Shown: one piece after another, positions 977 to 2,503 of the stretch
Layout of the letters: every line of letters starts with the position of its first letter
Position numbering within the stretch: the stretch's first letter is position 1
NCBI GenBank assembly: GCA_001192655.1
Contig: BBVC01000038.1
Span: forward strand, 1-7,295
DNA from: Caedimonas varicaedens
GTDB lineage: Bacteria; Pseudomonadota; Alphaproteobacteria; Caedimonadales; Caedimonadaceae
DNA: 7,295 bases
Reading direction: 5' to 3'
The notes under the pieces: model-generated
The model's database searches: none
Told to the model about the DNA's origin: nothing
Seen by the model: only the letters and a program-made list of their open reading frames with translations
Program-made: the position numbers and the translations under genes

Positions 977-2383
977 CTAATCTTTCTTAAGATGAACTTT
1001 GAAGTCTATAATTTTTACCTTTTGTTGAGCTAAAAAATCATTATACAATATTTCAGACACAGTCCTAAGTTGAACATCTTCTGGGTCCATATTACTATCT
1101 GCCCTATCGAAAGAAAAACCTTGTTTCTGGAACCAAAGCCACGAGTAAAAATTAAATATTTTTTCATCACCCCCTTTATTGAGCCAATGAATTAAACTAA
1201 ATCCAGAACTTTTACATCCTGATTTCTGCTCTATTTTCTTGTAACATTCATTAAAGACCGTCTTAAATGCTGGCTTTAAAGTAGGATGAGTTTTAATGTC
1301 ATACAAAGTTAATAATTGAGGTTCTTCAATTTGAGCCACTACTTTAGGAAGAAGTCTATGAGTGACAGGTAAGGTTTCCTTTTTTTCTTCAGGAATTGCT
1401 GAAATAAAAGAACTAAAATCAAAAGGCTTAAATTCCAAAGACTTATTTGGTATTAGTTTGGACTCTCCACTTCTTTGGGCAGAAAACTTTTTAAAAGCTT
1501 TGAGACCCACGTCTTGGTAAGTACTAAACACATGCGCTTCCCAAGAATCAATTGTTATAGGTACACCAATATCAAGAGATGCTTGAGCAACTACGGACAA
1601 AAGGTTGCCCCAAGGATTCGAAAGCACATTTCGAAGTTCTTTATCCATCCGTGTAAAAGCAAGTGTCTTTACCCTGGACTTATAATCTGGGGAGTCGCAA
1701 GCAGAAAATTCAACTTTAGTGCCTACAGGATAAAAACCCAGCCTTCTCTCAAAAAAATAAGCAATATCATCTTCCGCAACCATAAAATTAAAGTGATTTT
1801 TAAACCCTACCTTAACGGCATAATAAAAAGCTGCAGTGCTATCAAAGATTGCTGACGCTCCATAAGTAAAGACATTCATTTTCTCACTATTTGTTTCTTC
1901 ATATATTTTAAGAGCGATCAGATTAGCCAATGATCCCCCACGACTATACCCCTCAACAGTGATATCGTAATCCTTTAGATCTTTGCCCTGTTTTTTCGCA
2001 TATTGTAGAAGGTATTTATAAACAAGATTACTAATCCCCTGGAATGTTTCATAATATCCTCTATGTATGTTCCCCTCCAGTAATCTAAAATCTTTTTTAC
2101 TCGATACTGTACTTTTGTCCAGGGTTTGTAATGCTTCGTCAAGGTTGTCAGCACCTCGAAAGCTAATAATAATCCCATTAGCATTTTGAAAATTAAAACT
2201 TCCTATAGGAATTACCTTGCCTTGAACGATTTCATAAATGGGATCATTACCATAATTGTCATTAGATAATGCAAAGAGACGTTGTGTACTTTGCTTGATT
2301 TCTTCTTCTAAAGGAGACAAACTACCTAATACGGGAAAATTCAAAAATGTTAGAAGAATGAAAAAACTAAACAGACGCAACAT
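977..2383 (-). CDS. Predicted secreted class-3-lipase-like alpha/beta-hydrolase with an uncharacterised C-terminal domain (468 aa)
   Basis: This is a long uninterrupted ORF in AT-rich DNA. The ATG at 2383-2381 is preceded by AAGGG with a 7-nt spacer. The N-terminus MLRLFSFFILLTFLNFPVLG/SLSP looks like a Sec signal peptide (a basic residue, a hydrophobic core, then a small residue at -1). Lipase_3-type blocks appear in order: IIISFRGA (the AFRGT-like strand), IHRGYYETF (the VHxGF-like block), the nucleophile elbow ITVEGYSRGGSLANLIAL (Ser147, codon 1945-1943), VFTYGASA, MVAEDDIAYF (Asp206, codon 1768-1766) and WEAHVFSTY (His284, codon 1534-1532). Residues ~296-468 match no family I recognise. 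The function is inferred from motifs only. Confidence 0.8.
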   Translation of the reverse strand: MLRLFSFFILLTFLNFPVLGSLSPLEEEIKQSTQRLFALSNDNYGNDPIYEIVQGKVIPIGSFNFQNANGIIISFRGADNLDEALQTLDKSTVSSKKDFRLLEGNIHRGYYETFQGISNLVYKYLLQYAKKQGKDLKDYDITVEGYSRGGSLANLIALKIYEETNSEKMNVFTYGASAIFDSTAAFYYAVKVGFKNHFNFMVAEDDIAYFFERRLGFYPVGTKVEFSACDSPDYKSRVKTLAFTRMDKELRNVLSNPWGNLLSVVAQASLDIGVPITIDSWEAHVFSTYQDVGLKAFKKFSAQRSGESKLIPNKSLEFKPFDFSSFISAIPEEKKETLPVTHRLLPKVVAQIEEPQLLTLYDIKTHPTLKPAFKTVFNECYKKIEQKSGCKSSGFSLIHWLNKGGDEKIFNFYSWLWFQKQGFSFDRADSNMDPEDVQLRTVSEILYNDFLAQQKVKIIDFKVHLKKD

Positions 2384-2411
2384 AGAAATACCCTTTAGTT
2401 AATATACATTT

Positions 2412-2446
2412 ATTATGAATGATATACGTTTTTTGCAGTATTTCAA
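2412..2446 (-). promoter_or_regulatory. Candidate sigma70-like promoter for the lipase-like gene (TTGAAA-16 nt-TATCAT)
   Basis: On the minus strand, TTGAAA lies at 2446-2441, followed by a 16-nt spacer and TATCAT at 2424-2419. This sits inside the 120-nt AT-rich nuoF-lipase spacer, about 35 nt upstream of the ATG at 2383. Hexamers like these arise easily by chance in AT-rich DNA, and alphaproteobacterial promoters are poorly defined. Confidence 0.3.
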
Positions 2447-2503
2447 GTGACGTTTTTTTGTTATTATGACGTTATATTGAGCATAAGCTCTTTATTGTTG
2501 CAT

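Follow-up and report, generated by a model that had tools for sequence, protein, structure and literature searches.

Why does a gene for a probably exported, lipase-like protein follow nuoF, in the place where nuoG should come, in a bacterium that lives inside another cell? Caedimonas varicaedens is a member of the Holosporales and an endosymbiont in Paramecium, and the question arises on contig BBVC01000038.1 of its assembly GCA_001192655.1. We analyzed positions 1 to 7,295 of the forward strand, which make up the entire contig, and this whole stretch of 7,295 nucleotides (nt) is called the window below. At a probability of roughly 0.6, we read the gene as a lineage-specific, bacterial-type accessory gene that encodes an effector-like secreted class-3 lipase and sits at the breakpoint of an operon. 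A 100% identical protein (P0001) carries the NCBI name 'lipase [Caedimonas varicaedens]', so the lipase annotation is already known and the locus does not overturn the current understanding. The most interesting additions are a recombinant, hypervariable catalytic block and a conserved orphan module at the C-terminus. A literature search found no paper treating this lipase gene or complex I in Caedimonas. The gene and the parts of its product are located in the window as follows.

977-2383, minus strand: lipase-like gene with an ATG start, 468 codons and a stop (open reading frame call, Lipase_3, NCBI annotation)
2324-2383, minus strand: Sec-type signal-peptide-like N-terminus, codons 1-20 (hydropathy, -3/-1 rule, helix 2-14 in the AlphaFold2 (AF2) model)
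1469-2311, minus strand: class-3 lipase alpha/beta-hydrolase domain, codons ~25-305 (Pfam Lipase_3, AF2, Foldseek)
1945-1943, 1771-1769 and 1534-1532, minus strand: catalytic codons of Ser147, Asp205 and His284, respectively (family alignment)
1499-2274, minus strand: hypervariable (recombinant) block, codons 37-295 (sliding-window identity, two-breakpoint likelihood)
1352-1468, minus strand: low-confidence linker, codons ~306-344 (AF2 model)
980-1351, minus strand: conserved C-terminal module, codons 345-468 (allele comparison, free-standing homologues)

The predicted protein has three parts: a Sec-type signal peptide, a Lipase_3 alpha/beta-hydrolase domain and a C-terminal module. By simple heuristic rules, the N-terminus fits a Sec signal. 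It consists of MLR, a 16-residue hydrophobic core and VLG followed by S at the predicted cleavage point (with V at -3 and G at -1, in keeping with the -3/-1 rule), and the 10-residue Kyte-Doolittle mean is 1.5-2.6 over residues 1-13 and below 0 past residue 19. Pfam Lipase_3 (PF01764) matched residues 72-207 with 58.0 bits (E = 1.2e-15), above its cut-off of 22. An FRG motif of the oxyanion region is found at residues 75-77, and the nucleophile elbow GYSRG (G-x-S-x-G) with Ser147 is aligned with GHSLGG of the Thermomyces lipase. In a subfamily alignment of 32 sequences, 29 of which contain the lipase domain, S147 and D205 are conserved in 29/29 and H284 in 28/28 sequences; the members are mostly 250-320 amino acids (aa) long and carry the motifs FRG(S/T), EGYSRG, ED, FSA..S..Y..RV and WEAH..TY. 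The AF2 model run with this alignment had a mean predicted local distance difference test score (pLDDT) of 81.7, with values over 90 for most of residues ~21-250 and 281-300. When it was compared with the PDB by Foldseek, 2IX9, 1USW and 4TGL were matched with a probability of 1.0 and E-values of 6e-10 to 1e-8. The fold matches include feruloyl esterase A, the Rhizomucor and Thermomyces lipases and plant phospholipase A1 (PLA1), and a profile search of the PDB sequences agrees. We are confident in predicting a class-3 lipase-fold hydrolase with an intact triad of Ser147, Asp205 and His284. The initial annotation of this locus had proposed the Sec-type signal peptide and the class-3-lipase-like core, and it had described a 468-codon reading frame in the orientation of the nuo genes, a 120-nt AT-rich spacer after nuoF and a tightly packed, overlapping nuoA-F cluster. 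The gene structure, spacer, packing and lipase core are borne out, the N-terminus is Sec-like by the heuristic rules above, and the profile or structural match to a lipase or alpha/beta-hydrolase, without which its reading was said to fail, was obtained.

The catalytic domain is also where the gene varies. Contigs L001, L002 and L007 match the window at 97-100% identity along nuoA-F, the first ~36 and last ~170 lipase codons, the nuoG relic and the short-chain dehydrogenase gene described below, but over codons 37-295 their identity to it in sliding windows is only 70-78%. These three contigs carry class-B alleles, and against class B a two-breakpoint likelihood model gave 23.9% nt divergence inside the block and 1.5% in the flanks (twice the log-likelihood difference, 412). 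Synonymous divergence (dS) is 0.55 inside the block versus 0.03-0.08 outside, with a pN/pS ratio (omega) of ~0.4 inside. Because synonymous divergence is raised as well, the divergence of the block was imported by recombination and is not merely the result of positive selection. The allele class of the window (class A) is found again at 98% nt identity in L089, an independent metagenome, and P0003 represents a third class. This pattern points to deeply diverged catalytic alleles being swapped by homologous recombination among strains that are otherwise 98-99% identical. Such sharply bounded allele patterns are typical of host-interface genes, and the lipase evolves like a host-interaction gene, with an omega of 0.4-0.7 among the class-B alleles versus ~0.08 for the nuo genes. 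The result is a natural polymorphism of two to three alleles, limited to the catalytic domain, for which a correlation with host range or killer phenotype could be sought.

The C-terminal module (~110 aa) behaves in the opposite manner, being 97-100% conserved among the alleles and nearly invariant (omega 0-0.35). It is 50-54% identical to the free-standing proteins P0128 (233 aa), P0129 (137 aa) and P0132 (102 aa), the first two of which have hydrophobic N-termini. In the two loci of free-standing homologues that were examined, the gene context was sppA-dnaX-ybaB-recR in one and traB/MFS in the other, both being ordinary, uninformative chromosomal surroundings with no lipase nearby; as an example, the free-standing gene at L094 5001-5309 lies between sppA and dnaX-ybaB-recR. 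A 70-aa reading frame after the P0135 lipase turned out to be unrelated. The module had no significant match in Pfam, NCBIfam or PHROG, its stand-alone AF2 model reached a pLDDT of 62, and a Foldseek search of the PDB returned nothing below E = 3. As it varies much less than the catalytic domain, it would serve as a targeting or partner-binding unit. The locus thus exposes a small uncharacterised protein module that exists both fused and free-standing.

To see whether the gene belongs to the nuoF-nuoG junction, the best 80 alphaproteobacterial nuoF loci were compared, with a flank of up to 10 kb each. In the closest genome-level relatives, Caedibacter sp. 37-49 (L008; its NuoF is 79% identical to that of the window) and L093, nuoF is followed by nuoG after 16 nt and 19 nt, respectively, with no lipase between them. 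Downstream nuoG was present in 72 of the 80 loci, after a gap of at most 100 nt in 56 and of 300-830 nt in 10 of these 72, and a lipase homologue was near nuoF in 0/80. Because the lipase is absent from the junction in the closest genome-level relatives and in 72 other alphaproteobacterial loci, the gene is a lineage-specific insertion into the former nuoF-nuoG spacer and not an ancient unidentified reading frame (URF). The synteny comparison, which the initial annotation had named as a check, is in this respect on its side. As for the means of insertion, a mobile element was considered and rejected: no insertion sequence (IS) element, tRNA, meaningful flanking repeat or Rfam match was found at the locus, and the lipase has no phage relatives and, among plasmids, a single weak match (24% identity, 39% query coverage).

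The other side of the insertion shows what became of the operon, for which the remaining features of the window are needed.

6708-7184, minus strand: nuoA (open reading frame calls, Pfam)
6163-6738, minus strand: nuoB (open reading frame calls, Pfam)
~5543-6160, minus strand: nuoC (open reading frame calls, Pfam)
4365-5546, minus strand: nuoD (open reading frame calls, Pfam)
3769-4368, minus strand: nuoE (open reading frame calls, Pfam)
2504-3769, minus strand: nuoF, intact, the last functional gene of nuoA-F (Pfam Complex1_51K, SLBB, NADH_4Fe-4S)
2384-2503, minus strand: AT-rich nuoF-lipase spacer, 120 nt, 25.8% GC (sequence inspection)
700-939, minus strand: nuoG pseudogene relic, alignable part ~905-700 (tblastn, nucleotide alignment)
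1-652, plus strand: convergent short-chain dehydrogenase gene (FabG/PhaB-like), 3' part, its 5' end lost at the contig end (Pfam adh_short, adh_short_C2)

The junctions within nuoA-F consist of overlaps of 31, 4, 4 and 1 nt and one 2-nt gap. Sequence resembling nuoG begins 37 nt past the lipase stop and forms a frameshifted relic of ~230 nt that covers roughly nuoG residues 8-78. In tblastn with the NuoG of L008, residues 14-26 and 31-70 were matched in different frames and nothing further, and the nucleotide alignment revealed indels of 1, 2, 3 and 2 nt. The similarity stops near position 700, ~50 nt before the convergent stop of the short-chain dehydrogenase gene (650-652), which marks the far side of the rearrangement and is full-length (241-254 aa) in L002 and L007. 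The 96-codon open reading frame at 649-939 is an accident of the reading frame. The draft genome was obtained by 454 sequencing (142 contigs, 1.69 Mb, 42.1% GC, ~100 transposase-like best hits; its host was Paramecium biaurelia) (PMC4645214). We rejected an explanation of the nuoG frameshifts as 454 homopolymer errors, because the aligned independent metagenome assemblies L002 and L007 carry the same indels and the same end point, and tblastn found the relic in L003-L006 as well. The codon of the first Fe-S cysteine is lost in the window, where FCYH has become FFYH (TTC), and TGC is kept in L002 and L007, which points to ongoing neutral decay of the relic.

A candidate for the missing genes is L088, a 71-kb metagenome contig with 41.7% GC that contains intact nuoG-nuoH-nuoI at 10001-13566. 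Ahead of nuoG come an intergenic region of 668 nt and divergent genes that are unrelated, and no nuoF. The relic is 85% identical to the nuoG 5' end of L088 at the nucleotide level and only 65-68% identical to those of L008 and L093. In these two relatives nuoF-G-H-I are contiguous, downstream of nuoD-E or nuoB-E and followed by non-nuo genes; the cluster ends after nuoI both in L008 (14369-16519) and in L093 (7102-10064), where uvrA comes next. Since the cluster already ends there in the closest genome-level relatives, nuoJ-N are likely to lie at other loci throughout this group. We infer that, in the Caedimonas lineage, a break between F and G divided an ancestral nuoA-I cluster and left a duplicated 5' nuoG stub behind. 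The working nuoG, together with nuoH and nuoI, would have been relocated to another locus, and judged by its matching GC and its identity to the stub, nuoGHI of L088 is probably the relocated functional copy of this lineage.

Complex I itself is presumably still in use, because nuoA-F are under strong purifying selection: the comparison with L007 gave 50 synonymous versus 16 non-synonymous differences and an omega of 0.07-0.09 (0.13 for nuoF). A decay of complex I, suggested by the nuoF of L001 being called as three pieces, was rejected. The breaks at ~3570-3620 and ~3990-4010 each fall on N-runs of the scaffold, and with an omega of ~0.08 for nuoA-F the split is an assembly artefact and not pseudogenisation. 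The initial annotation had placed the lipase gene exactly in the nuoF-nuoG slot. The gene does lie between nuoF and nuoG-like sequence, but this sequence is a dead stub and not the start of a gene. Its description as embedded in a core respiratory operon cannot be kept: no functional nuo gene follows, nuoGHI have apparently moved, and the lipase lies at the scar left by the operon break, outside any working operon. The locus can be viewed as a dated rearrangement scar in the IS-rich genome of an endosymbiont whose complex-I genes have been dispersed, with nuoA-F remaining under selection.

The initial annotation had taken base composition as one sign of foreign origin. The lipase gene has a GC content of 34.7% and a GC at third codon positions (GC3) of 26.7%, compared with 38.2-47.9% and 34-44% in nuoA-F and a published GC mean of 42.1% for the genome, and it was lowest in both GC (z = -2.8) and GC3 (z = -2.5) against 21 neighbouring genes, taken from this contig and three related contigs at 94-99% identity. 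The contrast that had been estimated as ~32% versus ~50% is thus real, the lipase being the most AT-rich of ~22 genes, but the gap is ~8-11 points and not 18. Codon usage, which had also been named for checking, did not follow GC and GC3: the synonymous codon-usage distance of the lipase (chi-square per codon 0.184) is mid-range and unremarkable for the gene length. Low GC alone is weak evidence for horizontal gene transfer, because other accessory genes nearby, encoding a phosphatidylinositol-specific phospholipase C (PI-PLC) X-domain protein and an F-box protein, are AT-rich too. For a horizontal acquisition there remains the empty site in the relatives, but a mobility signature is missing.

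To trace the origin of the gene, 1.84 billion representative proteins were scanned with HMMER (E ≤ 1e-3), resulting in 203 matches, the best of which outside the Caedimonas cluster was 37% identical. The best ~30 relatives are short (250-500 aa), and all named ones are bacterial. They include a protein of an alphaproteobacterial metagenome-assembled genome (MAG; 37% identity), whose gene is located beside tamA/tamB, proteins of Chlamydiae including Chlamydiales STE3 (31-32%) and, more distantly, Wolbachia lipase-family/TomO proteins (29-32%). Eukaryotic matches were found in the PDB only, and no bacterial protein was among the PDB matches listed. These relationships point to a bacterial origin, with a subfamily that would circulate among host-associated lineages, and not to a transfer from host to symbiont.

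The possibility that the gene was acquired from a eukaryote, either from the ciliate host, as the initial annotation had suggested, or from prey, therefore appears very unlikely. Every matching solved structure is fungal or plant, the gene is AT-rich as is ciliate DNA, and relatives have eukaryote-like genes (F-box, PI-PLC X domain) close by; however, the bias of the PDB towards eukaryotes accounts for the structural matches, the identity to the fungal and plant enzymes is 14-19%, every named close relative is bacterial, including those of Chlamydiales STE3 and Wolbachia, and the relatives sit in ordinary bacterial gene contexts. We find it hardly credible that the nuo operon has carried the gene as a resident URF since ancient times, with vertical inheritance and a functional tie to complex I. 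The nqo/nuo operon of Paracoccus denitrificans reportedly contains URFs between its subunit genes, the lipase has the orientation of the nuo genes, no terminator-like hairpin follows nuoF, and ten of the 72 loci have the long nuoF-nuoG gaps given above. Yet nuoG directly follows nuoF in L008 and L093, orthologs at the same position across the clade, which the initial annotation had regarded as the mark of an ancient resident, were not found in the sampled loci, and for the sampled genomes the idea is already refuted. In addition, the nearest distant homologue lies beside tamA/tamB and not beside nuo, the product is a signal-peptide-bearing hydrolase, and the gene differs from the nuo genes in both composition and omega.

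A more serious competitor, which we consider possible although clearly less probable than the effector-like role, is a housekeeping periplasmic or envelope esterase engaged in lipid or envelope remodelling and not involved in contacts with the host; on this view, weak constraint in a decaying endosymbiont genome would account for the low GC and rapid evolution of the gene. The Sec signal by itself predicts the periplasm, no secretion-system signal was identified, the codon-usage distance is unremarkable, and an omega of 0.4-0.7 as well as a possible frameshift in L007 would suit a weakly constrained gene. On the other hand, every allele class strictly retains the catalytic triad and the C-terminal module, the relatives cluster in intracellular lineages, and the 16-fold excess divergence is sharply bounded and accompanied by raised dS, which indicates allele exchange rather than uniform decay. 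At the other extreme, strain-specific catalytic alleles could underlie differing effects on Paramecium, and the lipase might even be, or contribute to, the toxin of the killer trait. Prelethal symptoms of this trait vary with the bacterial genotype, and the toxin is still unidentified but probably plasmid- or phage-encoded (PMC11909080). With the lipase gene being chromosomal, this reading is a long shot.

We thus favor the secreted, effector-like lipase. In this proposal, it would be exported across the inner membrane by Sec and would hydrolyse ester bonds of host-derived or host-membrane lipids, acting as an effector-like or nutrient-scavenging exoenzyme; the putative effector role is plausible. 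Several observations weigh against it. A Sec signal reaches the periplasm only, and no outer-membrane or host-delivery route was identified. The sequence is compatible with several substrate classes, with triacylglycerol, phospholipid A1 and feruloyl-type esters as candidates. The lipase of L007 has a 1-nt insertion that shifts the frame at codon 27, either real or an assembly error, and if it is real, the gene is dispensable. Low GC may come from weak constraint under AT mutation pressure and not from foreign origin. Most distant homologues carry no taxon label, and the bacterial origin is drawn from ~10 named clusters. Likewise, L088 is assigned to the same organism by 85% nt identity and matching GC only, and no Caedimonas-named NuoG was among the top 120 matches.

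In the surroundings of the gene, the 120-nt spacer contains one sigma-70-like match, TTGAAA-16-TATCAT (10/12), at 2446-2419, and a purine-rich stretch, AAAGGG, lies ~8 nt ahead of the lipase ATG. The lipase would be transcribed from this promoter-like element of its own, and read-through from nuoF may also be possible since no terminator-like hairpin was found in 600-2700. The corresponding spacer of L007 (~7375-7460) has, relative to the window, a 31-nt insertion and a 24-nt tandem duplication, AAAAAACGTCACTTGAAATACTGC, which includes the -35-like TTGAAA and is either real or an assembly error. Two neighbouring genes seen on the related contigs are also of note. An F-box domain protein gene (344 aa; L007 1018-2052), with a eukaryote-like, effector-type domain, is located directly upstream of nuoA-F, and a PI-PLC X-domain gene (372 aa, GC3 28%; L002 2859-3977) lies ~1.4 kb past the left end of the window, just beyond the short-chain dehydrogenase gene; the latter adds another putative lipid-targeting gene of eukaryote-like character to the neighbourhood.

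Among known systems, the closest solved class-3 enzymes are the lipases of Rhizomucor miehei (1TGL/4TGL) and Thermomyces lanuginosus (1DT3), feruloyl esterase A of Aspergillus niger (1USW) and plant PLA1 (2YIJ, 7X0D). They share with the Caedimonas protein the alpha/beta-hydrolase core, the G-x-S-x-G elbow, the FRG ahead of the oxyanion region and a comparable spacing from Ser to Asp (147 to 205) and His, with template modelling (TM) scores of 0.6-0.66 (target-normalised). At 14-19% identity, however, the Caedimonas protein falls into a distinct subfamily with motifs of its own, and it adds a ~160-aa C-terminal extension with a module missing from all solved structures. Closer by sequence are the Wolbachia lipase-family/TomO proteins and the short proteins of Chlamydiae and alphaproteobacterial MAGs, which belong to the same Lipase_3 subfamily (29-37% identity, E-values of 1e-11 to 5e-28) and likewise occur in intracellular or host-associated bacteria. 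They differ in having no Caedimonas C-terminal module and no link to nuo, and the Wolbachia proteins are far larger and multidomain (458-1459 aa). With regard to its position, the gene resembles the URFs said to occur in alphaproteobacterial nqo/nuo operons in being a non-complex-I reading frame of the same orientation between nuoF and nuoG, but unlike them it is not conserved in relatives, encodes a predicted exported hydrolase and is followed by a dead nuoG.

Host-interaction factors of the Holosporales are almost unknown (PMC11909080). The lipase is a testable candidate for such a factor, as a predicted exported lipid hydrolase with a clear active site at S147. Intracellular pathogens are reported to secrete lipid hydrolases as well, such as the GDSL and patatin enzymes of Legionella and Pat1/Pat2 of Rickettsia. 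Patatin and GDSL enzymes are other protein families, and the analogy to the Caedimonas lipase would be functional only, in the shared proposed role of exported enzymes that hydrolyse lipids or attack membranes of the host.

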